A DNA stretch of 64,000 nt. Source: a virus. Taxonomy: Duplodnaviria; Caudoviricetes. Every line of letters begins with the position of its first letter. The first letter of the stretch is position 1. Location of the stretch: positions 1 to 64,000 of IMG/VR virus record IMGVR_UViG_3300013426_000019. One strand, given 5' to 3'. The translations under genes were made by a program, and so were the position numbers. Of the stretch, positions 30,138-45,832 are shown piece by piece. Under the pieces are notes generated by a model. The model saw only the letters and a list, made by a program, of their open reading frames with translations. It did no database searches and had not been told where the DNA came from.

Positions 30138-31547
30138 ATGAGCCTAGCTGAAGTATTATTGGAGCATAAGATCATCTACAAGAGTGAAGACTGTTATATG
30201 AGGGCACCTAAATATAAGGATAAGCTAAGTGCCTTATTAGAGGATCCCAATATAGCAATCTTATATAATAATTATATAGCTCAATATAGATCAGAGGGAG
30301 AGGCCTGGCATTGCCTACTTAAAGGCGACAATCCTAATAATCACTTATGTGAGGTATGCGGCAGGCCTAGTGAGTTCAATGCAACAGCCACGACAGTTGG
30401 TTATAGCAGGTTCTGCAGCAAAGAGTGCAGGAATAAGAGTAGGGACAATAATAGAGCTAAGACCTGCTTAGATAAATATGGTTATGAGTCTGCCATGCAA
30501 TCTAAGGCAATACAGGACAAGAGTAGACAAACTTGTATAAGCAGGTATGGTGTTGAGAACCCTAATCAAAGTGATAAGATCAAAGCTAAGAAAAGACAAA
30601 CCTGTATAGATAAGTACGGCGTAGAATGTAGCTTACTAAGCTCTCAAGCCCAACTCGAGTCACAGCAAACCCTTATGGTCAATTATGGTGTGAGTAATCC
30701 TCTTAAGAGTGAGGTAGTTAAGGATAAGATAAGAGCCACCAATCTTAGGAGATATGGAGTATCCAGTTATAGCCAAACTGAGGAGTATAGACGCAAGTAT
30801 ATCTCTGCCTCTAATGCGCATTATTCAACGAATAATCCCCGTCAGAGTGTCCTTGTGAGTAATCTTATTAAGGACACAAACAAAGCTCGTTATGGCGCTG
30901 AATATTACACTCAAACAGAGGAGTTCAAGGAGAGGTACAGAAATACCTGTACAGGTAAGTACGGTGTGTCAACTACGCTGCTAGTACCGGGGGTTAGGGA
31001 TAAGATAGCTACAGCTATTAAGAGTAAGTACGGTGTTGACAATGTATCCCAAAGTCCTTTTATTAAGGAGAAGAAGAGGCAGACGTGTATAAGTAGATAC
31101 GGCGTTGATAGTTACACAAAGACAGAGGAGTTTGCAAGGCAGAGATCTAAGAGATGGGTAGTTGAGGATCAAACTTATGATAGCAAGCCTGAGATCTATT
31201 ACGCTTACTATCTTAAGTACAACAATATGCCCTACGAGAGACAAGTTCCTTTAAGTTATAGAGACGCCTTGGGCTGCAATCACGTATACTTTGTAGACTT
31301 CTTAATACTAGATACTCAGGAGTTAGTGGAACTCAAAGGTAAGCACTTAATAGATGAGGATACCGGGGAACTTAAGAATCCTTATATAAGCAAGCTTACT
31401 GAAGCACAACGTCAAGCCCTTAAGGAGAGAGACGAGGCCAAGAGTAAGTGTATGAGGGATCATAAGGTTACCATAATTACGGATTATAGAGAGTATGAGG
31501 CACTCTTCAAAGAACATTACCCTAATCTTAAGATATCTTCAATCTAG
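30138..31547 (+). CDS. Free-standing homing endonuclease (KYGV repeats, PD-(D/E)xK)
   Basis: CEVCG, FCSKEC, about 10 YG repeats, YDSKPE...YFVDF...VELKG. Confidence 0.75.
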   Translation: MSLAEVLLEHKIIYKSEDCYMRAPKYKDKLSALLEDPNIAILYNNYIAQYRSEGEAWHCLLKGDNPNNHLCEVCGRPSEFNATATTVGYSRFCSKECRNKSRDNNRAKTCLDKYGYESAMQSKAIQDKSRQTCISRYGVENPNQSDKIKAKKRQTCIDKYGVECSLLSSQAQLESQQTLMVNYGVSNPLKSEVVKDKIRATNLRRYGVSSYSQTEEYRRKYISASNAHYSTNNPRQSVLVSNLIKDTNKARYGAEYYTQTEEFKERYRNTCTGKYGVSTTLLVPGVRDKIATAIKSKYGVDNVSQSPFIKEKKRQTCISRYGVDSYTKTEEFARQRSKRWVVEDQTYDSKPEIYYAYYLKYNNMPYERQVPLSYRDALGCNHVYFVDFLILDTQELVELKGKHLIDEDTGELKNPYISKLTEAQRQALKERDEAKSKCMRDHKVTIITDYREYEALFKEHYPNLKISSI

Positions 31548-33505: not shown

Positions 33506-34246
33506 ATGGGAAATACAAGAGACAGCTTAAGGTTAAGTTTATTCAGCAGTCATGATAGTCACAGTAGTCACAGCAGTCACAGCGATCATAGCAGTCACAA
33601 TAGTCATAGTAATCATGCCAACACAGATACCCAGAATTGGGATACTTCTAAGCTAGCAAATATTTCTTTCCCTAGTGCGGATGATACACTTAGTGTACAG
33701 AAATATCAAAATTTAATGAAAAATTTAAATATTATTAGATCCGCAGTAGGATTATCTCAAAGTAGTACCAATGCCTCTGATATTGCGGAGGCTTCAGAGT
33801 ATAATAGATTTAAATTACAATTAAAAAAAGTGACTAAGCAAGGGGTAACAGGAGGCACTTATTACAACGGGTTGTCGGAGGGTGGTACTGATTGGATTGA
33901 TATCCCGGGAGGGGCATCAAGTAAACAATCTTTATTAACAGATGTTCTGGGTTATTCTACTATACAATCTAGAATATTGGATGCTAAAAATAGAGGTATT
34001 CCAGTGCATGCCAGCCATAATAATCATATTGATCATGGTGACCATGGTAGTCATAGCGACCATAGTAGTCATAGTGACCACAGTGACCACAGTAGTCATA
34101 GTAATCACGACAGTCATAGTAGTCACGGCAGTACCGCGGCAAATTCCACATATAATGCATCTATTTATATCTCTAATTTAGGTTCAGATCACGGAAGCCA
34201 ATACTCCACACCTTATAAGAGCTCAGACTCATGCTATAGAACATAA
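33506..34246 (+). CDS. His-Xaa-Ser/Asp/Asn repeat protein, putative radical-SAM substrate
   Basis: 8 HxS/D/N triplets (33551-33622) and 14 triplets (34007-34132) flank a ~130-aa core; GGAGG RBS; first gene of the rSAM cluster. Confidence 0.8.
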   Translation: MGNTRDSLRLSLFSSHDSHSSHSSHSDHSSHNSHSNHANTDTQNWDTSKLANISFPSADDTLSVQKYQNLMKNLNIIRSAVGLSQSSTNASDIAEASEYNRFKLQLKKVTKQGVTGGTYYNGLSEGGTDWIDIPGGASSKQSLLTDVLGYSTIQSRILDAKNRGIPVHASHNNHIDHGDHGSHSDHSSHSDHSDHSSHSNHDSHSSHGSTAANSTYNASIYISNLGSDHGSQYSTPYKSSDSCYRT

Positions 34247-34258
34247 GTATTCATATTT

Positions 34259-35317
34259 ATGAATTTAGGTTTAGGGACTTTACATTTTTCATCTAAAATT
34301 TTGAATTCTTCAGAATTCAGAGAAATGATCCATTATTGTGTTCGAAATAATATAAGTTATTTCGACACTGGATTTTATTATGGGGAAGAACTAACGGAAT
34401 TTGCATTAGGAAAGCAATTATTTAATTTCCCAAGAGAATCTTATGAGATAGCTGTAAAATATATCCTTAATAGAGAGCATTCCCCTGAGGAAATGCTAAG
34501 GATTCAATTTCAGAAATTAAATATATCCTATGCAGACAATTTACTACTACACAATTTAACTGATAAAAATATTTCTTTTTATTTTGATTTTTTGGATTTT
34601 TTAGAGAAGAGTAAAAGAGAGGGCCTAGCAAAGAGAATAGGATTTTCTTCCCATCTATCCCCTCAAAACTTGGAAATTTTCCTAAAAATCAGAAAGTGGG
34701 ATGTAATATACCTTTATTTAAATTGGGTCGATTTTTACTCGAATACGGCCGAGGAAGAATACAAATTATGTGAAAAATACAAAGTCCCTGTTGTTGCTAT
34801 GGGTCCTCTAAGAGGTGGAAGAATATTAACTTTACCTAAAAAATATAGTTTGGAGTTAAAGAGAGTGCATTCCGAGTGGTCTTTGGTGGATTGGTCTCTA
34901 GGTTGGTTTAATTCTTTAAAAAATTGCAACAGAGTGCTTACTGGGGCCCTTTCTATTAAAGAATTACAAGCTAATATAAAAGCCTCTAAAAATAATTTAA
35001 GTTTATCAGATTTAAATCTTCTGAGAGATATTGCTGTAGATTATAAAAAGGAAAAATTAATACCGTGTACCGGTTGTGGATATTGTGAGAATTTTTGCCC
35101 TCAAAAAATAAAGATACCTCTAATAATTAAAAATTACAATAAATTTCTCTACGAGGAGGAGAAAGATCCTCGCTGGCTTCTCTCTTGGATGAAAGAAGAC
35201 TTAGTTTCATCAGATATAAACCTATGTGTTTTCTGTGGCAATTGTGAACAAATATGTCCTCAAAAAATTGATATTCCAAGGAGAATTAAAATAATTGAAT
35301 CTTGTATTAACTGCTAA
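34259..35317 (+). CDS. Aldo/keto reductase with a C-terminal 2x[4Fe-4S] domain
   Basis: LGLGT, YFDTGFYY, IGFSSH, AMGPLRGG; CTGCGYCENFCP and CVFCGNCEQICP. Confidence 0.9.
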   Translation: MNLGLGTLHFSSKILNSSEFREMIHYCVRNNISYFDTGFYYGEELTEFALGKQLFNFPRESYEIAVKYILNREHSPEEMLRIQFQKLNISYADNLLLHNLTDKNISFYFDFLDFLEKSKREGLAKRIGFSSHLSPQNLEIFLKIRKWDVIYLYLNWVDFYSNTAEEEYKLCEKYKVPVVAMGPLRGGRILTLPKKYSLELKRVHSEWSLVDWSLGWFNSLKNCNRVLTGALSIKELQANIKASKNNLSLSDLNLLRDIAVDYKKEKLIPCTGCGYCENFCPQKIKIPLIIKNYNKFLYEEEKDPRWLLSWMKEDLVSSDINLCVFCGNCEQICPQKIDIPRRIKIIESCINC

Positions 35318-36323
35318 ATGTGATAAGAATTGTAAAAACTGTTTTGCCTCAGAATACAGAAGACAAGAAAACCTTTTAAATAAGGATTTAGATTTATCTT
35401 TTTTAGAAAAAATATCGCCCTGGGACGGAGTATCCTCTCCCGATATAGGTATATTAGGAGGGGAGCCTACCCTAAATTCCTCTTTTTTCTTGATTCTTAA
35501 AAAATTATGGGATTTGGATTATGTTCCTGTGGTTTTTAGTAATTTTTTATTTGAGGATTTTTTCAAAATTAAATTAAATTCTTTTGTTCAGGATAATATC
35601 TCTCAGAAATTAAAATTCCTCGTAAACATAAATGATTTGAAGGGACCACATCTAAGTAGAGTAGTCAAAAATATTAATTTTATTCAAAAAACCCTTGCTT
35701 CTCAGAGGAAACTGAATGAACTATCTCTTTCTTTAACTATAGATCCTGTAAATTTCAATTCTACTTTTAAATATTTATGTGCCTTTTATAAAAAATTAGA
35801 TTTTATGCCTCGTCTTCGAGTAGGGATAGCTCTTCCCTCTGATTCAGAGGATAAATCTCAGTATAAAAAAATTATAAATAATAAAAATTTAGGAAATACT
35901 ATTATAAGCATTCTTCAATGGTCAGAAAGGCATCGTGTGTGTGTTTTTCTCGATTGTGGTATTTACCCCTGTATTTTTTCTTCTGAAGATTTCTCTATTT
36001 TTCAATCTTTTTTCCCAGATTTTAAATTTGGGTGTGGTGATGAACCCGCTTTTGATATTTTTCCTAATGGAAGGTCTATATTCTGTTTTCCTTTAAAAAA
36101 TCAAATTGCAAATTTTCTTTCTTTAAAAAGAAATTCAGATTTTTCTAATTTTTTTGATATAGTAGAAGCAAAAGAGAATTTAAAAAAGCAATTTATAACA
36201 ATGAAAGAAAAATATTCTTGTAAGGAGTGTTTGACATGCTTTTATAGTGATCTCTGTGAAGGAATATGCCCTGCATTCTTAAAAGGTTCTTTAAAAAAGC
36301 CCAAAGAAGCCTACAAAAATTAA
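35295..36323 (+). CDS. Radical SAM enzyme 1 with a Cys-rich C-terminus
   Basis: CDKNCKNC, LGGEPT, C-terminal CxxC-x5-C-x3-C. Confidence 0.88.
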   Translation: MNLVLTAKCDKNCKNCFASEYRRQENLLNKDLDLSFLEKISPWDGVSSPDIGILGGEPTLNSSFFLILKKLWDLDYVPVVFSNFLFEDFFKIKLNSFVQDNISQKLKFLVNINDLKGPHLSRVVKNINFIQKTLASQRKLNELSLSLTIDPVNFNSTFKYLCAFYKKLDFMPRLRVGIALPSDSEDKSQYKKIINNKNLGNTIISILQWSERHRVCVFLDCGIYPCIFSSEDFSIFQSFFPDFKFGCGDEPAFDIFPNGRSIFCFPLKNQIANFLSLKRNSDFSNFFDIVEAKENLKKQFITMKEKYSCKECLTCFYSDLCEGICPAFLKGSLKKPKEAYKN

Positions 36324-36378
36324 AAACAAAATCAAAATAATTATATTATTAATATAAGAGGTAAGGAGATTTAAAATT

Positions 36379-37815
36379 TTGGAGCCTTTATATAAATTTG
36401 AATTTGAAGCTGTCAATATATATTTTTCTGCAGTCTGTAATCTGAGGTGCAGATATTGTTTTCAACCTAAAATAAATGGTATTTCTCAAGAAATAAATAA
36501 AAAAATTGTAAATTGGATTACCTCCGGAAAAATGGAAGAGGATATAATTAAATATTACGGGGTAAATATTAGTGCTCTCTCTCTCTGGGGAGGAGAGCCT
36601 GGTATAAACCTTCCTATATTAGAAGAGAGGTTGGAATTTATTTATAATAAATTCCCTAAATTAGAAACCATACATTATTCCAGTAATATTTCCACAAAGA
36701 AATTAGCGCGCAATTCTGTTAATTTTATAAAAAAAATAGCTTTTTTGAATGAAAAGTTAGGTAAAAAAATCTCAGTATCTTTACAATTTTCAATTGATGG
36801 GCCTCCCGAAATAAATGATTACAACAGAGTTGGCTCAAAAGCAGAAAATATTCTTAATAATATTACCTTTTTATTGGAAGAATTAAAAGATGTTTCACCT
36901 GACTCTTATTCTTTGAATATTAAAGGAACTCAATCCGCGGATAATATTACTTTTCTAATAAAAGACAATAATTTACTTGAATATTATCAATATTTTGATA
37001 AATGGCAATCCCTCTGGCTAAAAATTTTACCTGAAGAAAAAATTCCGAAGGGCTCAACTTTTATCACACTAGTATATCCTGGGAATTTCACCCAGGAGGA
37101 TGGTTTTAATTTTAAAAAGCTGATAGAGCTTCAAAATTCTGAATCTTTTCAAGAAGAATGTGCCTGCAACACCTTTGTAAATTTCGATAACCAAGTAACA
37201 CGCCGTATAAAAGACACCCTTTCGGCTCTCAGGGCTGGTTACTATAGGGAGTATAAGGGGGAGTTATTACGGGTCTGTTCTTGCAGCGCAGGCAAATCCT
37301 GCGGGGGCCTAACCTATGATTCTCAATTTCACCTATGTCAGGCCACCTATATGTTTAATGAGGATATTCTTAATTATATTGAAAAACATAATTTAATTTC
37401 CGAATTTGAGGATAAGCAGGGATTCAGCTTTAGAAGCTTCGACGATCTTATCAAAGATAATATTGTAGTATCCTTTAGCGATGATTTAAAATTGTCAAGA
37501 CTTCTTTATAAGATAAATAATTTTAATTATAATTTATCTCTTAAAGTTCAGTACTTTGAAGTAATTTTATCGGAATTAGCAGCTGCGAATCAAATCAGCA
37601 GATGCTATCTGGACCCTAAGTGGAGAGATTTAGGTGTTGCTTATCTTCTTTTTGGGGGACATGAATGTCCTGTAAATAACATTTGGGAGTTTAGTTCTCC
37701 TTATATAAGAAGCACCTCCCATTTAAAATTGGTTTTTAATGGGGCCTTTGAGTACTATGTAAGTAATCATTATAGAGATATTTTAGGTCTAAACATAAAG
37801 GATATGATAAGATGA
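36379..37815 (+). CDS. Radical SAM enzyme 2
   Basis: CNLRCRYC, WGGEP, SIDG, CSAG...LC. Confidence 0.9.
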   Translation: MEPLYKFEFEAVNIYFSAVCNLRCRYCFQPKINGISQEINKKIVNWITSGKMEEDIIKYYGVNISALSLWGGEPGINLPILEERLEFIYNKFPKLETIHYSSNISTKKLARNSVNFIKKIAFLNEKLGKKISVSLQFSIDGPPEINDYNRVGSKAENILNNITFLLEELKDVSPDSYSLNIKGTQSADNITFLIKDNNLLEYYQYFDKWQSLWLKILPEEKIPKGSTFITLVYPGNFTQEDGFNFKKLIELQNSESFQEECACNTFVNFDNQVTRRIKDTLSALRAGYYREYKGELLRVCSCSAGKSCGGLTYDSQFHLCQATYMFNEDILNYIEKHNLISEFEDKQGFSFRSFDDLIKDNIVVSFSDDLKLSRLLYKINNFNYNLSLKVQYFEVILSELAAANQISRCYLDPKWRDLGVAYLLFGGHECPVNNIWEFSSPYIRSTSHLKLVFNGAFEYYVSNHYRDILGLNIKDMIR

Positions 37816-39197
37816 ATTTCAATTTCATAGAAGAACAGAAAAAACTACTTTATTCTTTTCTAGACATTCACTGCTTCAGGAATTGGAGGATTCCCCCCTC
37901 AAAAAGAACAGGAGAGGAGTATGTAAATCTTTTAGAAATGATGGTTTCGCCCGTATGTAATACTGCTTGCACATATTGTTACATGAAAAATTATGCTGAT
38001 TCTCTATACCCTTGTTTTTATGATAAAAATTCCTTATTAAATAATTGTAAAAAGATTATGACCTGGCTCAAAAAAGAAAATTTTTATCCCTCAAGTATAG
38101 AGATTTTTTCCGGAGAATTTTTCAATTTGCCCTTTTGGAAGGATTATTTACAAATAATTTATGATTCTCTAGAAAAAATGGAGGAGGGTAAAAAAGTACC
38201 AATAGTAATTCCCACCAATGGAACTTTTTTTGATTCTGAGAAAAAAACACAGGAAATACAAGATTATTTTGACAGAGTTTATAAAAAAGGTTTTATTATT
38301 GTTCTATCTCTCTCTGTAGATGGATATTATTTAGATAATGATACACGCCCTTTTAGAGACAAAAGAAGATACACAGAAGATTTTTATGATAGGATGTTTA
38401 GATTTGGGGCTCGTAATTTAATTAAATATCATCCTATGATAGGCGCGAAAGGTATAGAGAGATGGGTAGATAATTTCGATTGGTATGTAGAAAATATTCA
38501 AAAATATTACAAAATTCCAAAAAAAGAAGCCCTTGAAAAATTATACTTATTAGAGGTAAGAAATCCCGACTGGTCTACTAAGGAATTAAAAGATTTTAAA
38601 GTTTTTTTAAATCATATAATTGATGTTTTATTTGAGGGGTGCACATCTCCTGAGGAGAAGTTCAATCTACTTCTCAGCAATACTTTAAATATACTAGCAC
38701 CTCTAGTAGTTACTATAGGAAGAGGCCTCCCCTGCTCTTTTCAGCAGTGTCTAGATTTAAGGGTAGGAGATCTTGCCTTAGTTCAGTGTCATAGAACAGC
38801 ATATAGCGAATTGCTAGGCGGGTATTTTAAAATATCAGATAAAGGAGAATTAGACCTAGACGTGCGCAATGCAAATTCATACATTTTTTCTAATTCTTTT
38901 AATTTTAAACACCTAGCCAAATGCATAGATTGTCCTATTAGCTCTCTTTGTAATGGGCCTTGTTTAGGGTGTAATTATGAGGTTAACAGGGATTTATATA
39001 CTGTAGTGCCTACAGTTTGTGATTTAGAATACACAAAGGCTTTGACTTTAGTTGAAAGGGCGTATCAAGAAGGCTTTTTAGATAGTATTTTAGAAATACA
39101 TTCAAATAGCACCTCCTCTGATTCTGTTTTAAAGAAAAATCAATTATTACACCTTAAAAAATATCTAGAAATTAAAAACACTAAAGGAGATTTTTAA
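37812..39197 (+). CDS. Radical SAM/SPASM enzyme 3
   Basis: CNTACTYC, TNG, SVDG, CIDCPISSLCNGPCLGC...C. Confidence 0.9.
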   Translation: MNFNFIEEQKKLLYSFLDIHCFRNWRIPPSKRTGEEYVNLLEMMVSPVCNTACTYCYMKNYADSLYPCFYDKNSLLNNCKKIMTWLKKENFYPSSIEIFSGEFFNLPFWKDYLQIIYDSLEKMEEGKKVPIVIPTNGTFFDSEKKTQEIQDYFDRVYKKGFIIVLSLSVDGYYLDNDTRPFRDKRRYTEDFYDRMFRFGARNLIKYHPMIGAKGIERWVDNFDWYVENIQKYYKIPKKEALEKLYLLEVRNPDWSTKELKDFKVFLNHIIDVLFEGCTSPEEKFNLLLSNTLNILAPLVVTIGRGLPCSFQQCLDLRVGDLALVQCHRTAYSELLGGYFKISDKGELDLDVRNANSYIFSNSFNFKHLAKCIDCPISSLCNGPCLGCNYEVNRDLYTVVPTVCDLEYTKALTLVERAYQEGFLDSILEIHSNSTSSDSVLKKNQLLHLKKYLEIKNTKGDF

Positions 39198-39199
39198 TA

Positions 39200-39703
39200 A
39201 TGTTATTGGATCAAGTAAAAGAATTTATTAATTCAAATAAGAATTTGATAGACGATCTAACTAAGGCTAGACCACAGGGGTATATTTATGCTTTTTTACA
39301 AGAATGCCTCTCATTAATGGAAGGAGGAGATTCCTCAAAAATAGATGAGACCTTTTTACATGAATATAGATATACTGTATTGACTTTTACAGACGTCATT
39401 ATCAAAACAAAAACAACACAATCAGAAAAAATCGTGATAAAAGCAATTGCAAACTTATTATATAATGTCTCTATTAATTATGGCATAACCGAGTGCAGTA
39501 CTGAGCTTAATGCTTTGGTGATACTTTCAGAAGCCTCAAAATCTTTAGAGGATATTTTATATGTATTGATATGTATTTTTAATAAATTAAGTGATAGACT
39601 TTATGAAGAGCCTACGACTAATCTTCTTTCAAGAAAATATTATTTAGAACTAAGTGATTTTTTAGAAGCAAGAAAATCCCATGATGAAAAATATAATATA
39701 TAA
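39200..39703 (+). CDS. Hypothetical helical protein of the rSAM cluster
   Basis: AGGAG RBS, operonic position. Confidence 0.65.
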   Translation: MLLDQVKEFINSNKNLIDDLTKARPQGYIYAFLQECLSLMEGGDSSKIDETFLHEYRYTVLTFTDVIIKTKTTQSEKIVIKAIANLLYNVSINYGITECSTELNALVILSEASKSLEDILYVLICIFNKLSDRLYEEPTTNLLSRKYYLELSDFLEARKSHDEKYNI

Positions 39704-39744
39704 AAGTAACAACAAAACTTAATCATTTTTTAAGGAGTACTTCA

Positions 39745-41016
39745 GTGTTTCAGTGGAGTAATTTAATTATAGTGGCACTCACTCAAAAATGTAATATGAA
39801 CTGTAAATATTGCTATCTTGGAGATAAATCATCCCTTCCCGACACTGAGATGAGTTTTGCCACCTATAAAGTTTTAATAAATCAAATAGCTTTAGATAAG
39901 GTTCAGTTTTTTAAAGAAAAAGGGAAGATTTCCAAATTTCAGGTGCTTCTTCATGGGGGGGAACCTACTCTTATTTCCAAAAATAAATTTGAGAGATTTT
40001 TAGAATATGGAACAAAAGTCTTCAGTGCGTATGGCCTGCCCTTCGAATTTTCAGTGCAAACTAACGGCATTAACTTAGACCGGGATTTATTACAGATATT
40101 TAAAGATTATAACGTCCATTTAGGTATAAGTATAGACGGATGTACTAATAATTTAAGAGATGCCCCTGTTGATCAAAAATTGATTATTAATCATTTAAAT
40201 TTAGCTAAAGAAATGGATGTTAAATTTGGCACAGTAAGTGTATTCACATCATTAGATGATAAAAATTTTTTGGATGAAATTCTAGCTTATAATGGGTGGA
40301 TGTGCATCAAAGTTAATAAAATGGAAGAGTATTATAATAATGGATTAACTCCCTCTCCTGCCCATTATTTTAATAATATATTTCTGCCGTCCTTCAAAGA
40401 TTATATTTCAGGATCTAAATCGAGAATTTATTCTGATTTAGAAAGAATAATAGATGGTTTTTTAATAGATGTTGCTACTTCTCATAGTTATAATACCCAG
40501 AGTACCTGCAAATTTAAGTTTTGTGGAGCAGGAACAAAACTTATAAGTATAATGCCCAGTGGGCTAATGCATATATGTGATCATTGGAGAGGTGATGAAA
40601 CTTTTTACAACGAAAAAGTGCATCAAGTGGGAACTTTTGATTTTCTTACTTTGCAACAATTCAGAGCCTCCCTACGTTGGATTCAAAAATTAAATCCCTT
40701 AATTAAGGAGAAAGGATGTGATAATTGTATTTACTCAATTATATGTTTGCATGAATGTCCCTTATCTAATATAAAGTTAAATGGGAAGTGGGCCCTTGAT
40801 AAAAGGGATTGTGAACTTACTAAGATGATTTATGATTATCTTTGGGAGCATCTTGAGGATTTATTAGAAGGTGTAAGTAAAAGGAAAAATAATATAATTT
40901 CGACCACTGATTTCTCTATATATAAGTTGCATAAAAGATTCCAATTGAGTAAGTATAAAATATCAAAGATTAATCGTAATTCTATTAAAATAGAAAAAGG
41001 CGCAGAGCATGTTTAG
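39745..41016 (+). CDS. Radical SAM/SPASM enzyme 4
   Basis: CNMNCKYC, HGGEP, QTNG, CGAG, CDNCIYSIICLHECP...C. Confidence 0.92.
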   Translation: MFQWSNLIIVALTQKCNMNCKYCYLGDKSSLPDTEMSFATYKVLINQIALDKVQFFKEKGKISKFQVLLHGGEPTLISKNKFERFLEYGTKVFSAYGLPFEFSVQTNGINLDRDLLQIFKDYNVHLGISIDGCTNNLRDAPVDQKLIINHLNLAKEMDVKFGTVSVFTSLDDKNFLDEILAYNGWMCIKVNKMEEYYNNGLTPSPAHYFNNIFLPSFKDYISGSKSRIYSDLERIIDGFLIDVATSHSYNTQSTCKFKFCGAGTKLISIMPSGLMHICDHWRGDETFYNEKVHQVGTFDFLTLQQFRASLRWIQKLNPLIKEKGCDNCIYSIICLHECPLSNIKLNGKWALDKRDCELTKMIYDYLWEHLEDLLEGVSKRKNNIISTTDFSIYKLHKRFQLSKYKISKINRNSIKIEKGAEHV

Positions 41017-42274
41017 ATTTACAAATTTAATAATTTTCGAATTGACTAGAGATTGTAATCTTAATTGTAAATATTGTTTAATGCAAGAAAAATATAAACA
41101 TAGAGGAGAAATTATTGATTTTGAGCTTTTTAAAAAAATAATTAATAGAATAGCTGAACAAAGAATTTTAAATGGTAAAGATCAAGAAGAATTTCATATA
41201 AATTTTCATGGGGGTGAGTGTACTCTAATAGGAAAATATAATTTTACTAGGTTTTTGGACTATGTGACTAAAACTTACGATGAATTGGGTCTGAATTATA
41301 AATTAGGGATACAGACTAATGGAACTTTATTGGATGAGGAATTCCTTAAGATTTTAAGACATTATAATTTATCTGTTGGTATCAGTTACGATGGTACTGG
41401 GGAGAAAAAGCCTTTACGATATTCCACAGACATTCAAAGTAAACTCGAGGATACTATCAAACTCTGTACCAAAATGAAAGTACCTATTGGTGTATTAGGT
41501 GTTTTATCTAAAAATAATAGTAATAATTTAGTTAAAGACAGTATTTCCCAATTTAAAAAATTAGGTATTTTTTCTAAATATAGTTTTCTTGAGGACTTAC
41601 AAAATCCTTATGATTCTAAAATCGAATTAACAGGAAAACAAATATTCAAAAGAGCATATAAACCTATAATTGATTTTTACATAAAGACTGGAATTAAACT
41701 AGAACAACATACAATAGCTTTAATGACTGACACCTTGACTGATATATTATGCTATCACCCTAGAAGGTATGAGACAGGTTGTTCAGGGTTGATTTGTGGT
41801 GCTGGTATGACCATGATTGCTGTCAGGCCTGATGGTACTATGGGGTACTGCGATAGATATTCTAAAGATTTTAATGAGAATTATATAGAGCACGCTTTAG
41901 ACTATGACTTTTTAGGTCTTCATCAATTGAGCAAAGCTATTAAATTAGTCCAAATAAAGCACAGAATAATTCAAAAAGTAGGTTGTGATACCTGCAGGGC
42001 AAATTATATGTGTGAAAATGGGTGCTTGGCTTTTTATTATTCTAAATTTGGGAAATATGATATTCAAAAGGAACTTATTTGTGATCAATATTTACTTACT
42101 TATGATTATGTAAGAAAAAATTTAGTTAAAATATTATTAAGTAGCATCGACAAACATTTTATTTTACCTGCCGGAATTCATGATATCAAGCCTTATTATG
42201 TAGATTTATTTAAAAATAAATATAAAATTAAATTGACAATAATTGATAATATATTATATATATATAAGGTATAA
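41009..42274 (+). CDS. Radical SAM/SPASM enzyme 5 (paralog of enzyme 4)
   Basis: CNLNCKYC, HGGE, QTNG, CGAG, CDTCRANYMCENGC...C. Confidence 0.92.
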   Translation: MFRFTNLIIFELTRDCNLNCKYCLMQEKYKHRGEIIDFELFKKIINRIAEQRILNGKDQEEFHINFHGGECTLIGKYNFTRFLDYVTKTYDELGLNYKLGIQTNGTLLDEEFLKILRHYNLSVGISYDGTGEKKPLRYSTDIQSKLEDTIKLCTKMKVPIGVLGVLSKNNSNNLVKDSISQFKKLGIFSKYSFLEDLQNPYDSKIELTGKQIFKRAYKPIIDFYIKTGIKLEQHTIALMTDTLTDILCYHPRRYETGCSGLICGAGMTMIAVRPDGTMGYCDRYSKDFNENYIEHALDYDFLGLHQLSKAIKLVQIKHRIIQKVGCDTCRANYMCENGCLAFYYSKFGKYDIQKELICDQYLLTYDYVRKNLVKILLSSIDKHFILPAGIHDIKPYYVDLFKNKYKIKLTIIDNILYIYKV

Positions 42275-42284
42275 GGAGCCTCAG

Positions 42285-43865
42285 ATGTTTGATTTAAAAG
42301 TAGGATTTACATGCAATAATAAGTGTATACATTGTGTGGTGGAGGGTAAAAAATCAACTAAGGATTTAACCTTGGAAGAAATTAAAGACATTGTAAATAG
42401 AGTTCCAGAAAGAGAGGGGATTGTACTTACAGGAGGTGAGGTAAGTATAAGAAAAGATTTTTACGATATTGTTAAATATTGTTTTGACAAGGGGCATAAA
42501 GTATGTATACAAACTAATGGTACAGGTTTTACAAAAGAGTTAACAGAAAAAATTGCCCCCTATCTTTCGCAGGTCTTAATAGCTATACATTCTTGCAATG
42601 AGGATATTCATAATAAAATCGTGCAATGTAAGGGTCCTGACTCCATGTATAAAAAAACAATGGAAGGTTTTAAAAATTTAATAGAAGCTGGGGTTAATTT
42701 AGAAACACAGACTGTAATATCCACGTTGAATATAAAGACTTTATATGATACGTATTCCATGATTCAAAAAATGTTGCCAATGTGTTTTATGCATCTGACT
42801 TATCCACACCCTATGGGAGGAGCTTACGACAATCATGAAATAGTATGTCCTAAGTATAGCAATATCAAAAAATATATCCTCCCGATCGTGAGGGATTTTG
42901 GAACAAGACTCGTAGTAGAGGCCATCCCCCCTTGTTATCTGCACCCCTGGTATCAATCCATTGAAATTTTAATGGATTCAGAAATTAAGAGAGGCTCTCT
43001 TTGTCGCAAAGGCTTTGATAAGAGTATTTCTGAATCTAATGAGACTGTACAAGATTATAATAAAAATGATGTAAATTCAAAAAGAAAAGGTCCTCTCTGT
43101 AGTGAATGTGCTTATAACTATGAGTGTATAGGCGTTTGGAAAGAGTATTTAGAATTTTATAGGGATAATTGTGATTTATATCCTGTTGAAGAAATAGATG
43201 ATAATTCTATAAATAGGGTTTATATTAAATTATCCGGGGCTACAGATCAATTCTTGTTGAATCAAATACTGTCCAAATATAAATATGAGGAAATTATTCC
43301 TTATGGAAATTTGAGAAGTAGCTTAAAAACTCTTAATTTTTTTAATTATAAATATATCAGACCTTATGTTTTAACCGAAAAAAATTTATACTTATTAGAG
43401 GAATTTAAAGATATTAATCTCCATATAGAAAAGGATACTCATTTTTTAGATTTTCTTATAAAGAATAATTATAAAAATAATTTTTATGTTGATTTTGATA
43501 TTTTAAATAGAACTTTTGAGGAAGTAGAACCTATTTTGAATAAACTATCACAATTGAATATTGGATATTGTAGAATTTTCCGGAGTAAAGGTGAAAATAT
43601 AGAAGATGGCAAAGAATCTTTTGCTATTTTAAACAAAATTAATAAAATTAGAGATAACTACCCTTATCAAATATTATTTGTGAATGCTCAAAATTGCAAC
43701 TTTGATGAATGTACTTATTTAATTCAAACATTACGTGATGTTTATATTGAAATAACTGACAAAATAATAGAGAATAAAATCGACAGCGATCTGTTTAAAA
43801 CAAAATGTTGCTTGAATTGCACTTTTGATTCTAGGTGTTTTGGTTTTAAAAAAGGAGGACTCTAA
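42285..43865 (+). CDS. Radical SAM enzyme 6 (HxsC-like) with an extra C-terminal Cys-containing domain (start reassigned)
   Basis: AAGGAG RBS before the ATG at 42285; CNNKCIHC, TGGE, QTNG, IPPC, CSECAYNYECIG; terminal CLNCTFDSRCFG. Confidence 0.85.
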   Translation: MFDLKVGFTCNNKCIHCVVEGKKSTKDLTLEEIKDIVNRVPEREGIVLTGGEVSIRKDFYDIVKYCFDKGHKVCIQTNGTGFTKELTEKIAPYLSQVLIAIHSCNEDIHNKIVQCKGPDSMYKKTMEGFKNLIEAGVNLETQTVISTLNIKTLYDTYSMIQKMLPMCFMHLTYPHPMGGAYDNHEIVCPKYSNIKKYILPIVRDFGTRLVVEAIPPCYLHPWYQSIEILMDSEIKRGSLCRKGFDKSISESNETVQDYNKNDVNSKRKGPLCSECAYNYECIGVWKEYLEFYRDNCDLYPVEEIDDNSINRVYIKLSGATDQFLLNQILSKYKYEEIIPYGNLRSSLKTLNFFNYKYIRPYVLTEKNLYLLEEFKDINLHIEKDTHFLDFLIKNNYKNNFYVDFDILNRTFEEVEPILNKLSQLNIGYCRIFRSKGENIEDGKESFAILNKINKIRDNYPYQILFVNAQNCNFDECTYLIQTLRDVYIEITDKIIENKIDSDLFKTKCCLNCTFDSRCFGFKKGGL

Positions 43866-44449
43866 TGAAAAACATAGGATTGAATAAAACGAGCTGGTCA
43901 GACCCTGAAAAACGGAATTATATTAATTCATGTTTACAGTCAGAAGGAATTATTAGATTTCAGTTTATGCCAAATACATTTTTAAATGTGGTCGAGCATT
44001 TAGAGGATTTAGAAACTTTAGAGCCTCTGCGGGAGATGAATATATATACTCTTTCTCCAAAGGAAGGTAAAAATCAGATTACTGTCAAAAAAGCTTCTGT
44101 AGAACTTAATGTGTTTTTAGGGGAGGGACTTAAAATAAAATCCCCTATCGAAGTAGATTTTTTTACTTTTGTATATATATGTGATGAAATTAACATCCTC
44201 TCTAATTTGATTTCTTTTAAAAAATTATTAAAAGAGTATAATATAGAGGGAAAAATAGAAGGTGACCTTATCTCTCTGGGGGACAGCACTAGATCTGATG
44301 TACTTATTCGCTGTTTCAATTATCACACAACTTCCAATTTACTTAAAACTCTTGTTTTTTGTGATACAAGTAAAATACTCAAAGAGGAGAAGGAACGCAT
44401 ACGATTCAATGAGAATTTATTAGAAATATTAGAAAGAGGAGAAGTTTAA
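43865..44449 (+). CDS. Hypothetical protein
   Basis: Coupled to rSAM 6; GGAGG RBS. Confidence 0.65.
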   Translation: MKNIGLNKTSWSDPEKRNYINSCLQSEGIIRFQFMPNTFLNVVEHLEDLETLEPLREMNIYTLSPKEGKNQITVKKASVELNVFLGEGLKIKSPIEVDFFTFVYICDEINILSNLISFKKLLKEYNIEGKIEGDLISLGDSTRSDVLIRCFNYHTTSNLLKTLVFCDTSKILKEEKERIRFNENLLEILERGEV

Positions 44450-44451
44450 TT

Positions 44452-44799
44452 ATGATATATGATATAAATAGATGTAGTCGCTGTGGAAAAAAGTTTGAGG
44501 ATTTAAGGTTATCCATTAGACTGGATATTTTCACTGAGAGGTTAAAAGAAACGGGAGTTTGGGAAGAAATTCCTAACTTAACTCAAGTATCTACAGAAAC
44601 ATTATGCCCCGAATGCTTTGATAGGTTCGTAGATGCCATGGCTTCTCTTAACGTTCCTCATGAGATTCATGAGGAAATGCTAGAAGAAGCTGTAAATGAT
44701 GTCGCAAGTATCTATCCTGTAGAACCTGCCCTAGGAAATTCTCAAGTTTTTCCAGATCAGCCAAAATCCGAAAATAAAATTTCCTTAGTAGAAGACTAA
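44452..44799 (+). CDS. Zn-ribbon protein
   Basis: CSRC...CPEC. Confidence 0.6.
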   Translation: MIYDINRCSRCGKKFEDLRLSIRLDIFTERLKETGVWEEIPNLTQVSTETLCPECFDRFVDAMASLNVPHEIHEEMLEEAVNDVASIYPVEPALGNSQVFPDQPKSENKISLVED

Positions 44800-44827
44800 G
44801 AATATTTTAAAAGGTATTGATTTATTT

Positions 44828-45832
44828 ATGGAATTTAAATATAAATTATGTGCCTATGCTATTTGTAAAAATGAGTCTCAATTTATTGATAGATGGGTAG
44901 ATTCGATGAGTGAGGCAGATTATATATGTGTATTGGATACAGGCAGCACTGATGACTCTTTTTTAAAATTAAAATTAAGGGGAGTTCATACAGAACAAAG
45001 AATATTTGAACCTTTCGATTTTAGTGTTGCCAGAAATGAATCTTTAAAATTAATCCCTAGTTGGTGTGATCTCGCAATTTGGGTTGATTTAGATGAATAC
45101 ATGGAGCCAGGCTGGCGCTCCATATTAGAAGCAAATTTTTATGGGCTTATGATGGATGTAATAAGGTCTAATCCCATAGAGGACTTTAGCGGCAAACCTT
45201 TAGAAAGGATGGATTCAATATGTTGCCAACGTATTCACAGAGTAAATTATAATAACAGTAAATTAAAATTTGTTAATCCAGTGCATGAAGGCTTAGTAGA
45301 TTTAAATAACTTAAATTATAGAAGTTCCCTTATAAAGGGTCTTAAGTTAATCCACACTCCTGATTATAGCAAAAGCCGTATTTTTTATAAAGATTTAAAG
45401 ATTTCAAAAGAAAAGGCTTCAATCGAGAAAGCTTTAAAAAATAAGGATAATTTAAAGATTTATTTTAAGGGTATAAGAAATTTTATAGATGATTATACTA
45501 ATCCTATAGATCCTAATTGTGATTTATTTAAAGAATATAAAAATGTTATCTGTGACAGATTATTAAAATTAAAAACAGGGTATCCTTTTGCCATTTATCT
45601 TTTGTGCCTATTGAATTTTTTAGAAACAAATCAAATCCCTCGAGATTTAAGTTTTGAGTTATATAAGAGGAGCCCGATTTGGTATTCTAGATTTATATTG
45701 ATTATGTGGGTCTGGAGTGATAAGAACTTGAGGAAAGGGAATCCTAGATACAGGGAAATATATCAATTGATAACCAATAAGGAGCCTTCTTTGCTAGAAA
45801 TAAGCAGGATCCAAAATTACATAGAGGTATGA
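44828..45832 (+). CDS. GT2-family glycosyltransferase
   Basis: AICKNE, DTGSTD, FDFSVARN, DLDE, VHE. Confidence 0.9.
   Translation: MEFKYKLCAYAICKNESQFIDRWVDSMSEADYICVLDTGSTDDSFLKLKLRGVHTEQRIFEPFDFSVARNESLKLIPSWCDLAIWVDLDEYMEPGWRSILEANFYGLMMDVIRSNPIEDFSGKPLERMDSICCQRIHRVNYNNSKLKFVNPVHEGLVDLNNLNYRSSLIKGLKLIHTPDYSKSRIFYKDLKISKEKASIEKALKNKDNLKIYFKGIRNFIDDYTNPIDPNCDLFKEYKNVICDRLLKLKTGYPFAIYLLCLLNFLETNQIPRDLSFELYKRSPIWYSRFILIMWVWSDKNLRKGNPRYREIYQLITNKEPSLLEISRIQNYIEV

Follow-up and report, generated by a model that had tools for sequence, protein, structure and literature searches.

Six radical SAM enzymes behind a His-x-Ser repeat protein in a large phage: a candidate maturation cassette for a fibre-type virion protein

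What do six radical SAM (rSAM) enzymes do behind a His-x-Ser repeat protein in a phage genome? The window, i.e., the whole stretch of DNA analysed (64,000 nt), comprises positions 1–64,000 of the IMG/VR record IMGVR_UViG_3300013426_000019 (158,768 bp). An earlier note on this DNA had placed the locus in a phage, which is borne out by genes for a primase, an exonuclease, SbcD and sheath-like, terminase-like and homing-endonuclease proteins. From 33506 to 45832 (~12 kb), every gene lies on the + strand and is packed with overlaps or gaps of at most 55 nt; the region is one operon. It begins with the repeat protein P0003, followed by an aldo/keto reductase (AKR)-ferredoxin fusion, the six rSAM enzymes together with three small ORFs and, as the last gene, a glycosyltransferase-like gene (Table 1). 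As noted before, the cluster lacks a peptidase or exporter; profile searches of the island ORFs found none. The reading that we favour, with somewhat better than even confidence, is that the island serves the phage as a cassette by which a fibre-type protein of the virion is matured after translation.

Table 1 Features of the island and its upstream neighbour (window coordinates)
Feature	Position	Strand	Evidence
SAM methyltransferase-like ORF, 249 aa	32319..33068	+	Pfam Methyltransf_11 23.5 bits, Methyltransf_25 24.7 bits
P0003, 246 aa, proposed substrate	33506..34246	+	8 + 14 in-phase H-x-(S/D/N) triplets
P0003 N tract, residues 16–39	33551..33622	+	8 H-x-(S/D/N) triplets; no Lys/Arg, 2 Asp
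P0003 C tract, residues 168–209	34007..34132	+	14 H-x-(S/D/N/G) triplets; no Lys/Arg, 6 Asp
Aldo/keto reductase-2x[4Fe-4S] ferredoxin fusion	34259..35317	+	Pfam Aldo_ket_red 89 bits, Fer4_9 36.6 bits
Probable rSAM enzyme 1, 342 aa	35295..36323	+	CxxxCxxC at 9–16; C-terminal Cys cluster at 309–325
rSAM enzyme 2, twitch-like, 478 aa	36379..37815	+	NF033640 twitch rSAM 59 bits, Pfam Radical_SAM 33 bits
rSAM/SPASM enzyme 3, 461 aa	37812..39197	+	PapB-family profile 49 bits, full length; CxxCxxxxxCxxxC at 371–384
ORF, 167 aa	39200..39703	+	Conserved in L002 and L004
rSAM/SPASM enzyme 4, 423 aa, paralogue of enzyme 5	39745..41016	+	28.5% identity to 41009–42274; CxxxCxxC at residues 16–23
rSAM/SPASM enzyme 5, 421 aa, triad member	41009..42274	+	~100 metagenomic clusters at 35–63% identity
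rSAM enzyme 6, triad member, 526 aa from ATG 42285	42285..43865	+	HxsC 74.8 bits (cut-off 267.9), AhbD 82 bits
ORF, 194 aa	43865..44449	+	Shared with L002 and L004
4-Cys zinc-ribbon-type protein, 115 aa, triad member	44452..44799	+	Homologues 28–48% identical
Glycosyltransferase-like protein, 334 aa, last operon gene	44828..45832	+	phrog_13126 beta-1,4-glycosyltransferase 133 bits

P0003: The description of this protein as two phased tracts, 22 triplets in all, around a non-repetitive core, with only 15 residues before the first His, stands. A 15-residue head, the N tract, a 128-aa His-free core and the C tract are followed by a tail of 37 residues that is rich in Tyr/Ser and closes with a conserved DSCYRT, and 22 of the 23 His residues fall inside the tracts. 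In 20,000 shuffles of P0003, a period-3 His run of at least 8 occurred once and a run of 14 never. Over four homologues (49–78% identity), the His columns are invariant and the x positions vary; P0001, P0002, and P0125 are homologues of the same build. The Ser codons of the N tract are all AGY, and the DNA repeat units of the C tract are diverged (63–90% matches). A strong Shine-Dalgarno sequence, GGAGGA, lies 7 nt before the ATG. The ACTAAT motif reported upstream is present, but the closest one, CAACTAATATA at ~33194, is ~310 nt 5′ of the start codon; the promoter argument is weak. Pfam and PHROG searches with P0003 gave no Peptidase_S74, Gly-rich or other domain, and no confident fold was obtained.

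rSAM enzymes: All six ORFs have the N-terminal CxxxCxxC that had been reported. Five are clear rSAM matches; enzyme 1 is sub-threshold in Pfam (19 bits) and NCBIfam, with rSAM homologues (28–30% identical) in three phage clusters that hold multiple rSAMs (L005, L009, and L010). The SPASM-type cluster CxxCxxxxxCxxxC, also reported before, is full in the ORFs at 37812, 39745, and 41009 and partial or twitch-like in those at 35295, 36379, and 42243. One of the two proposed paralogue pairs holds, namely enzymes 4 and 5; enzymes 2 and 3 show no pairwise similarity, and their homologues (29% and 32% identical, respectively) adjoin each other in L019. Enzyme 4 has no N-terminal recognition domain and scores 94 bits with PapB, 84 with anSME, 73 with YhhB and 59.5 with HxsB, all far below the cut-offs. 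With the family profile of enzyme 5, 4K36 scores 112 bits across the full length, followed by CteB and ChlB; among solved structures, the anaerobic sulfatase-maturating enzyme (anSME) is the closest relative of enzyme 5 by this comparison. The SPASM enzymes, with CxxxCxxC at residues 16–23, can be aligned over their entire length with anSME, whose substrates are whole proteins. Enzyme 6 likely starts at ATG 42285 and not at TTG 42243 of the longest ORF. Besides an HxsC-like first domain it has a second, degenerate rSAM domain in which CxxxCxxC has been lost; long relatives have two such motifs. More than 120 metagenomic clusters match it at ≥ 41% identity, none named HxsC, and a paralogue (46% identical) lies at 81838–83109 of the same record. 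No profile places the island rSAMs in a cyclophane-forming family, all scores being 4- to 8-fold below the cut-offs and no better than those for anSME/PapB.

Other island proteins: The Fe-S aldo/keto reductase that the earlier note saw after the repeat gene is confirmed by its Aldo_ket_red match and 4Fe-4S dicluster domain. In L015, two His-x-Ser proteins have a homologue of it (30% identical) directly upstream, and the fusion may donate electrons to the rSAM clusters or reduce a carbonyl intermediate. The 4-Cys protein has homologues directly after a SPASM enzyme in at least 10 phage loci, and C8, C11, C52, C55, R30, E38, N42, and E49 are invariant. Its AF2 model (pLDDT > 90 for residues 11–60) gave no significant PDB fold match; it may be a partner of the rSAM enzymes. 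The 167-aa ORF had no match in Pfam, NCBIfam, PHROGs or PADLOC, and the 194-aa ORF no significant family match in profile searches. For the GT2 proposed at the cluster end, PHROG 13126 is the sole support, as Pfam gave no match. GT2/GT8 genes and GT8-rSAM fusions occur in related clusters, and the glycosylation that had been considered is plausible because a GT8 domain is fused to the same rSAM family in P0203 and P0224. The upstream methyltransferase exists as an ORF, but it is probably accessory and outside the core system because its match is weak and it is missing from the syntenic L002; L004 has it.

Does the association of repeat protein and enzymes extend beyond this phage? Thirteen lineages of large uncultured phages share a triad made up of an HxsC-like rSAM (enzyme 6), a SPASM rSAM (enzyme 5) and the 4-Cys protein; it recurs in that order, and its members are always adjacent in the other phages. 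With a strict threshold of at least five in-phase His triplets, a protein with His (or His/Tyr) at every third residue was found in the module in 10 lineages (positives: L006, L015, L016/L023/L147, L017, L018, L145, L146, L148, and the window family); L005, L009, and L019 have His/Tyr-rich candidates only under a looser criterion. We also sampled four long-form HxsC-like enzymes, chosen by the length of the carrying contig before their neighbours were inspected. All four have an in-phase His-triplet protein immediately upstream, one of them on the same contig as L016. The repeat protein holds the position immediately upstream of the rSAM pair in lineages whose other accessory genes all vary. 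The pairing proposed earlier thus recurs in many independent phage lineages at 37–46% enzyme identity, and gene neighbourhoods support the view that repeat protein and enzymes form one functional unit. In L007 (95–97% identical to L148), the fibre gene is deleted except for its last 22 codons and the triad is kept; hence, the enzymes are not strictly tied to that one fibre substrate.

The relatives suggest what the substrate is. The repeat proteins of L016, L017, L018, L023, L146, and L148 contain Peptidase_S74 (50–68 bits), four of the six also Gly_rich_2, and judged by these domains the repeat protein is a tail fibre in five lineages. In these fibres, the first His tract starts at residue 3 and the second ends at the autocleavage serine, at the S-D-x-R-L-K cleavage site. 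As the tracts of most relatives begin at residue 3, there is no room for a leader. Neighbouring genes in related loci encode fibre-like proteins, Peptidase_G2, Laminin_G_3, and gp25. Short repeat proteins with the tract-core-tract build of P0003 occur in L145 (217 aa) and L006 (264 aa). The likeness of the P0003 core itself to fibres is short and weak: when the P0003 family was compared by hhalign with seven fibre distal shafts, the probability was 96% over only 22 columns, and phmmer matched the core to a 2474-aa protein built from 31 fibre-like repeats in tandem. No recognisable tail-fibre gene is among the nearest neighbours of the island in the window phage. At the periodic position, His and Tyr swap in relatives (YAN-YSN...HSN-HGN-HSN in L005, HAS-HSN-HVN-YSN in L009, similar tracts in L150 and L010), which suggests that the target is the aromatic ring, as it is in triceptide motifs.

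Because the His-periodic proteins of the relatives are tail fibres, we favour a maturation kit for a virion fibre over one for a secreted peptide. P0003 would be made without a leader and may be part of the virion. The rSAM enzymes would act on both His-x-Ser tracts and possibly on Tyr-x-Ser/Thr motifs of the tail. Enzymes 6 and 5, enzyme 4 as the paralogue of the anSME-like enzyme 5, and the 4-Cys protein would form the core of the machinery, to which the window phage would have added the three other rSAMs, the AKR-ferredoxin and the glycosyltransferase. The likeliest chemistry would be H abstraction at Cβ of the third residue in an aromatic-x-(Ser/Asn/Asp) triplet, followed by a C–C link from Cβ to the imidazole or phenol ring, giving a three-residue cyclophane with −2 Da per triplet. 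Ser could also be glycosylated. The outcome would be a rigid, protease-resistant cap at both fibre ends, in the relatives the N terminus near the baseplate and, at the distal end, the tip bared once the chaperone domain self-cleaves. Three-residue cyclophanes are products of triceptide synthases. For the HAA, HNR, and HTK motifs, His-C2 to X3-Cβ links are established (PMC11499958). Our literature search found nothing matching a radical-SAM/His-x-Ser fibre cassette. We know of no virus in which chemical modification of a virion fibre by rSAM enzymes has been shown; if our reading is true, such enzymes chemically modify a fibre of the virus particle.

Alternatively, the His tracts could be unmodified metal-binding segments, either metal-stabilised trimer caps or a store of Fe, Ni or Zn, while the rSAMs work elsewhere, e.g., on a sugar for the glycosyltransferase. 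In T4 gp37, His-rich HxH motifs of the fibre tip bind iron, as cited in PMC11705849. Related clusters hold KdsA/KdsB/transaldolase-type sugar genes and glycosyltransferases besides the GT8-rSAM fusions, and cofactor enzymes (AhbD, NirJ, and MoaA) are among the top profile matches of enzyme 6. We nevertheless consider this unlikely: the cofactor-family scores are 6-fold below the cut-offs, the repeat gene keeps its place 5′ of the rSAM pair, and Tyr in place of His suits ring chemistry better than His-type metal sites. The two readings are also compatible, as a modified tract could still bind metal.

Bacterial HxsABCD is a characterised antiphage defence in which HxsA, with five HxS repeats that are rich in basic residues, is matured by the rSAMs HxsB and HxsC and the small HxsD and prevents phage DNA from entering (PMC13128918). 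The phage module is composed of analogous parts, with enzyme 6 matching the HxsC model TIGR03977, and could provide an envelope effector that keeps out the DNA of rival phages (superinfection exclusion) or serve as a decoy against host HXS. This is quite improbable. The kinship with HxsB and HxsC fails at the profile level (59.5 bits against a cut-off of 370 and 74.8 against 268), P0003 is sub-threshold with HxsA4 (34.6 bits, cut-off 55) and HxsA (26.3 bits, cut-off 121.65), and the HxsD model does not match the 4-Cys protein. PADLOC gave nothing beyond generic viperin similarity. The P0003 tracts have no Lys/Arg and 8 Asp, the protein lacks a hydrophobic N terminus and a peptidoglycan-binding domain, and the relatives' repeat proteins are tail fibres with Peptidase_S74.

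A classical RiPP or bacteriocin precursor, cleaved and exported, is suggested by the repeated three-residue motifs and by RiPP maturases (PapB, YhhB, DynA, CteB-like) as best profile matches of the rSAM/SPASM enzymes, but it is very unlikely, as no leader precedes the tracts, which begin at residues 3–16, a recognition-element domain is lacking in the SPASM enzymes, peptidase and transporter are missing and the substrates are 217–627 aa long, among them autoprocessing fibre proteins. The earlier preference for a structural protein over a secreted RiPP is borne out in the relatives, where the tracts cap Gly_rich_2/Peptidase_S74 fibres. Host DNA misjoined by misassembly, which the G+C of the island (0.28–0.32 vs 0.38–0.40 in the flanks) and the adjoining homing endonuclease gene might suggest, is scarcely credible because the island is part of a phage record of 159 kb, two related phages from other samples (L002 and L004; contigs of 164 kb and 119 kb) have it in synteny, at the same genomic position with the same phage genes on either side, its rSAM families, among them many relatives of enzyme 5, occur on many 100–300 kb phage contigs, and a pattern scan of limited sensitivity over 185,579 prokaryote species genomes found no close relative.

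By these profile comparisons, in which all four HxsABCD models fail, the island does not belong to the bacterial HXS defence system. It resembles HxsABCD in combining a repeat protein with two rSAM types and a small protein, and differs from it in its tracts free of Lys/Arg and in a gene order unlike D-B-C-A.

The island (33506-45832, + strand) holds both the phased His-x-Ser tracts and the radical SAM (rSAM) cluster described in the earlier note, with 22 triplets in the repeat protein P0003 and six CxxxCxxC ORFs. A His-free core of 128 residues separates the two tracts, which hold 22 of the 23 His, eight Asp and no Lys or Arg. When P0003 was shuffled 20,000 times, a run of eight was seen once. 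The repeat units of the tract DNA are diverged copies, and among four homologues (49-78% identity) the x positions drift but no His column varies. Ser in both tracts is always encoded by AGY and never by TCN. This codon pattern is consistent with tracts that grew by duplication of a CAY-AGY-AGY unit, followed by point divergence. The tail of P0003 contains five Tyr with Ala, Ser or Thr two positions on and terminates in DSCYRT, which is kept in three homologues; these Tyr triplets may offer extra motifs to the operon's other enzymes.

P0003 and the genes downstream share one strand, where they overlap or are spaced by no more than 55 nt, and CxxxCxxC is N-terminal in all six rSAM ORFs. The earlier note had claimed a cluster lacking peptidase and exporter, and we likewise found no protease or transporter in the island. 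G+C is 0.28-0.32 in the island vs 0.38-0.40 in the flanks. The record comprises 158,768 bp (estimated as 74% complete), its first 64 kb being the window, and the flanking genes encode a primase, an exonuclease, an SbcD-like nuclease, a sheath-like protein, a homing endonuclease and a terminase-like protein. Two homologues from other samples, P0001 (84% identity, 164-kb contig) and P0002 (77%, 119-kb contig), have the whole island between the same phage genes, the methyltransferase missing in one. Because of this synteny, the island is not an artefact. The low-G+C island is closely preceded by the homing-endonuclease-like gene (PHROG 3339/12131; DUF7487 in the relative); in L004, a syntenic phage, the matching slot is taken by an ORF of 342 aa with no domain on record.

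Features of the phage record and of compared loci
Feature	Position	Size	Description
Homing-endonuclease-like gene	30138-31547	469 aa	
P0003	33506-34246 (+)	246 aa	15 residues, N tract, core, C tract
P0003 N tract	33551-33622	8 triplets	HDS HSS HSS HSD HSS HNS HSN HAN
P0003 C tract	34007-34132	14 triplets	first HAS, last HGS
P0003 tail (residues 210-246)	34133-34243		YNA, YIS, YST, YKS, YRT
Downstream of P0003	(+)		AKR-ferredoxin fusion, six CxxxCxxC ORFs, ORFs of 167, 194 and 115 aa, glycosyltransferase-like gene
rSAM enzymes 1, 2 and 3	from 35295, 36379 and 37812		
rSAM enzyme 4	39745-41016		SPASM
rSAM enzyme 5	41009-42274		SPASM
rSAM enzyme 6	42243/42285-43865		HxsC-like
4-Cys protein	44452-44799		
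Second island	79794-87940		four rSAM genes, two Cys-repeat proteins
rSAM of second island	81838-83109		46% identical to enzyme 6
First Cys-repeat protein	85521-86537		Cys at every 4th and later at every 5th residue
Second Cys-repeat protein	86552-86746		
Putative promoter motifs, examples	2712, 9670, 12935, 17484, 19832, 21196, 23802, 30122, 58658, 58750		
Double-rSAM enzymes, examples	L006:8064-10001, L018:7927-10008, L145:6001-8013		two CxxxCxxC
Deletion in L007	L007:7987 vs L148:1517-5915	4.4 kb	clean
Tandem paralogues in L150	L150:1210-3170 and L150:33-1229	~320 aa	Cys/Tyr-rich N termini, C-terminal Tyr/His-x-Asn/Ser arrays

The same record carries a second island beyond the window. A scaffold common to P0003 and the first Cys-repeat protein is not supported, as BLASTP gave no core similarity at that sensitivity. 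Two short motifs in the window look like two promoter classes. TTATATTATATA occurs 21 times with at most one mismatch (3.1 expected), mostly directly 5' of replication-type genes and of the homing endonuclease, and the 10 copies of CACTAATT (3.8 expected) precede other genes. Inside the island and near the His-x-Ser gene, neither motif has an exact copy, so the timing of expression cannot be read from the promoters.

Comparison loci were collected from IMG/VR and JGI metagenomes and then compared with the island. Single-protein queries for related loci in IMG/VR gave no match, and an alignment query was needed. Enzyme 5 has homologues in about 100 clusters (35-63% identity), mostly on contigs of 100-300 kb with phage genes and typically among 3-11 rSAM genes. 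What recurs is a contiguous triad in the order HxsC-like rSAM, SPASM rSAM and 4-Cys protein; homologues of the last share 28-48% identity, with C8, C11, C52 and C55 invariant. In L006, L016/L023, L017 and L018, the triad is immediately preceded by a gene whose product has a His every third residue, and L015 has two such genes after rSAMs and an AKR-ferredoxin homologue. As a guard against hindsight, four long-form enzyme-6 homologues were picked on contig size alone. All four have a His-x-Ser protein directly upstream, and since one lies on the contig of L016, they add three new lineages. The search for repeat and multi-rSAM synteny in phages, which had been suggested as a check, returned a recurring triad with a tract protein. 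Among the matches listed for a (CAY N6) x8 DNA pattern over IMG/VR, most were tandem DNA repeats in irrelevant frames.

One pair of contigs (L007 and L148, 95-97% identical) amounts to a natural 'substrate knockout'. In L007, three ORFs and the His-x-Ser fibre gene except its last 22 codons are gone, and the rSAM triad is intact. Further Tyr/His-tract proteins are encoded elsewhere in the L007 phage (L150). A triad kept despite the loss of its fibre is evidence against the fibre-modification reading; it may mean that the enzymes have several substrates or that L007 is a defective variant. The L150 proteins are tandem paralogues that adjoin a further SPASM rSAM, 40 kb from the triad, and in their cores they share 33% identity with the L148 fibre's distal shaft.

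The proposed substrates of several relatives are recognizable as fibres. The proteins of L016, L018, L146 and L148 (580-627 aa) share one layout, in which His-x-Ser begins at residue 3 and is followed by Gly_rich_2, a shaft, a second His tract and, directly after that tract, S-D-x-R-L-K-K-N-I, the cleavage site of the Peptidase_S74 intramolecular chaperone. The domain Peptidase_S74 is found in L016, L017, L018, L023, L146 and L148, each time within the His-x-Ser protein. Given how S74 domains are known to behave, the second His tract would form the distal end of the mature fibre after autocleavage. The shorter proteins of L145 (217 aa) and L006 (264 aa) resemble P0003, with a tract-core-tract build and no chaperone. 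Among the neighbouring genes are ones for fibre-like proteins, Peptidase_G2, Laminin_G_3 and gp25.

Sequence comparison goes part of the way towards placing P0003 itself in the fibre class. Peptidase_S74 and the S-D-x-R-x-K site are absent from P0003 and from all ORFs of the phage record. An exhaustive phmmer search with the P0003 core returned only its own small family and one protein of 2474 aa, in which 31 fibre-like repeats stand in tandem (E values of 2.7e-29 summed and 2e-6 pairwise). This metagenomic protein, P0124, is the only distant relative of the core, and its near-identical repeats of ~70 residues carry the motif ..ANIT.GTLAAARLP.SGVTAGTYG... When P0003 was aligned with seven fibre distal shafts in hhalign, the probability was 96% over 22 columns only, in a helix just after the N tract. 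An AF2 monomer from a 3-sequence alignment was unusable (pLDDT 33.6), and the homotrimer prediction with three copies scored 0.00, leaving the fold uncertain. The Atlas model (pLDDT 0.42) has Peptidase_S74 phage proteins as its nearest structural cluster, a lead only at TM 0.39-0.46.

Modules without a strict-His match were revisited in a looser scan, which found proteins of the same build with Tyr and His alternating at the periodic position. In L005, YVN-YAN-YSN stands at the N terminus, with HSN and HGN-HSN later; L009 has HAS-HSN-HVN-YSN at the C terminus; and in L010/L149 and L150, Tyr/His/Cys arrays lie beside further SPASM enzymes. Aromatic interchange and a small polar residue two positions on are the signature of triceptide motifs. 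In triceptides, links from His-C2 to the Cβ of X3 are established for HAA, HNR and HTK (PMC11499958).

The comparative evidence supports the view put forward in the earlier note that the island serves to hypermodify a structural protein and not to make a secreted RiPP. For P0003, we infer both the virion location and the chemistry. Our wider proposal is tentative, and we give it somewhat less than an even chance: large phages use their own rSAM enzymes to put RiPP-type covalent modifications on aromatic-x-Ser/Asn arrays of whole virion fibres. These arrays would cap the N terminus of the fibre and the distal tip bared by self-cleavage of the chaperone. They would receive ring-to-Cβ cross-links and perhaps glycosylation, with different triplet types read by different paralogous enzymes, of which each phage has 3 to 11. 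Alternatively, the chemistry might begin with an anSME-like oxidation of Ser to the aldehyde, in which case the neighbouring aldo/keto reductase could play a part. O-glycosylation of Ser is possible because of GT8 fusions in the enzyme-6 family and the terminal glycosyltransferase.

The enzymes stand apart from the named families. Searches against HxsB/HxsC and the triceptide maturase families, intended as a check on the original proposal, gave scores below every cut-off, and no island enzyme reached any curated cut-off. The best triceptide-family scores (bits/cut-off) were YhhB 83/445, AmcB 69/425, XyeB 63/450, FxsB 57/370 and GrrM/OscB 55/310, so that none of the island maturases falls into these named cyclophane synthase families; the YhhB profile spans the full length of enzyme 5. 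Enzymes 4 and 5 are paralogues (28.5% identity) with complete SPASM Cys patterns and no N-terminal extension. Against solved structures, the enzyme-5 family profile matched 4K36 end to end (112 bits), followed by CteB and the cyclophane synthase ChlB, the latter in the N-terminal half only (78.5 bits). The enzyme-6 family comprises more than 120 metagenomic clusters, none of them named HxsC, and its members are either short (~300-320 aa) or long (~620-700 aa). The long HxsC-like enzymes contain two rSAM units in tandem; enzyme 6 of the window retains the second rSAM domain, minus its CxxxCxxC, and in P0203 and P0224 an N-terminal GT8 glycosyltransferase takes the place of the double-rSAM build. 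The AF2 model of the 4-Cys protein is good for residues 11-60, and Foldseek gave no PDB match to its fold at E <= 0.001. Megablast of the island and flank found no match in 50,697 GenBank phage records. By tblastn, enzymes 5 and 6 had two weak uncultured matches or none, and no cultured phage at E <= 1e-10. The sole match in a narrower-alignment scan of prokaryote genome contigs was N-terminal and 28% identical.

Maturation of peptides (RiPPs) by rSAM enzymes is well known. For one bacterial defence protein, HxsA, rSAM maturation was recently reported (PMC13128918). In the literature, we found neither a paper describing enzymatic radical chemistry on a virus-particle protein nor a description that matches this system. 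If true, the proposal would add a new route to building and hardening host-recognition fibres, and it would explain the 3-12 rSAM genes in many giant phages, a puzzle since CP220/CPt10 (2010). It would also give protein engineers enzymes that cross-link whole proteins without a leader, at simple tags of three residues, and provide a comparative handle on the HXS defence mechanism. The triad and its tract protein form a compact, expressible and testable set.

HXS: HxsA/B/C/D (TIGR03976-03979) is a characterised antiphage defence (Li et al., Nat Commun 2026, PMC13128918). On maturation SHRSS gains 8 Da, the mature effector stops phage DNA entry from the periplasm, and 99.7% of the systems are in Pseudomonadota chromosomes (PMC13128918). 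Both systems combine a His-x-Ser repeat protein, rSAM enzymes of two kinds and a small partner; as in HXS, the phage rSAMs would mature a whole repeat protein and not a peptide, and HxsC is the second-best named match of enzyme 6. On these likenesses, a minority reading is that the phage module acts in exclusion. The differences are that the module is phage-borne, has 22 acidic or neutral repeats vs five basic ones in HxsA, lacks an export or peptidoglycan-binding part, follows another gene order and has tail fibres as the substrates of its relatives. P0003 does not look like the HXS effector, whose traits are basic repeats, processing at the N terminus, export and a peptidoglycan-binding domain; it has no Pfam domain, a polar N terminus and tracts with eight Asp and no Lys or Arg. 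It scores 26.3 bits with HxsA TIGR03979 (cut-off 121.65) and 34.6 with HxsA4 NF038313 (cut-off 55), mainly in the repeats. The best HxsB score (TIGR03978, cut-off 370) is 59.5 bits, for enzyme 4, where PapB and anSME outscore it; enzyme 6 reaches 74.8 bits with HxsC (TIGR03977, cut-off 267.9) and 82 with AhbD. No small ORF (45, 47, 115, 167 and 194 aa) matches HxsD in NCBIfam at E <= 0.1, a different conserved 4-Cys protein being found there. By every membership test, then, the phage module is not a member of HXS, its similar parts list notwithstanding. As a weaker extension of the fibre-modification proposal, the bacterial effector might be an evolutionary offshoot or mimic of fibre caps.

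CP220/CPt10: These virulent Campylobacter phages have 11-12 rSAM genes (PMC2853527). Like the phages compared here, they are large and carry many rSAM genes in an exchangeable module, but they have no described repeat substrate.

T4 gp37: HxH motifs bind iron in the tip of this long tail fibre (as cited in PMC11705849). Both cases have ordered His motifs in a phage fibre, towards the receptor-binding end. The His spacing is two in gp37 and three here, and scattered pairs contrast with tandem arrays. The gp37 motifs are not known to involve dedicated enzymes, and the present phage family allows Tyr for His.

anSME: The closest solved structure (PDB 4K36), an anaerobic sulfatase-maturating enzyme, is likewise an rSAM with SPASM and no N-terminal recognition domain, and it acts on Ser/Cys Cβ-H of whole proteins. 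The anSME equivalog TIGR03942 (cut-off 349) gave 92 and 84 bits. In the island there is no sulfatase gene and no C/S-x-P-x-R motif, and the target would be tandem H-x-S triplets.

Triceptide systems: HaaB (HAA), YhhB (HNR) and HtkB (HTK) are rSAM/SPASM enzymes that modify His (PMC11499958). A triceptide substrate consists of aromatic-x-x triplets in which the third residue is small or polar, and the 22 H-x-(S/D/N/G) triplets of P0003 fit such a substrate. Position 1 is swapped between His and Tyr in the phage relatives, and a SPASM-type rSAM is encoded beside the substrate. The phage module differs in having no leader, recognition domain, protease or exporter; its tracts begin at residue 3-16, and CxxxCxxC lies at residues 16-23 in the SPASM enzymes. 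Its substrates are 217-627 aa long, some are tail fibres, and they carry up to 22 or more motifs. The phage module, finally, always adds an HxsC-like rSAM, often a double one, and the 4-Cys protein.
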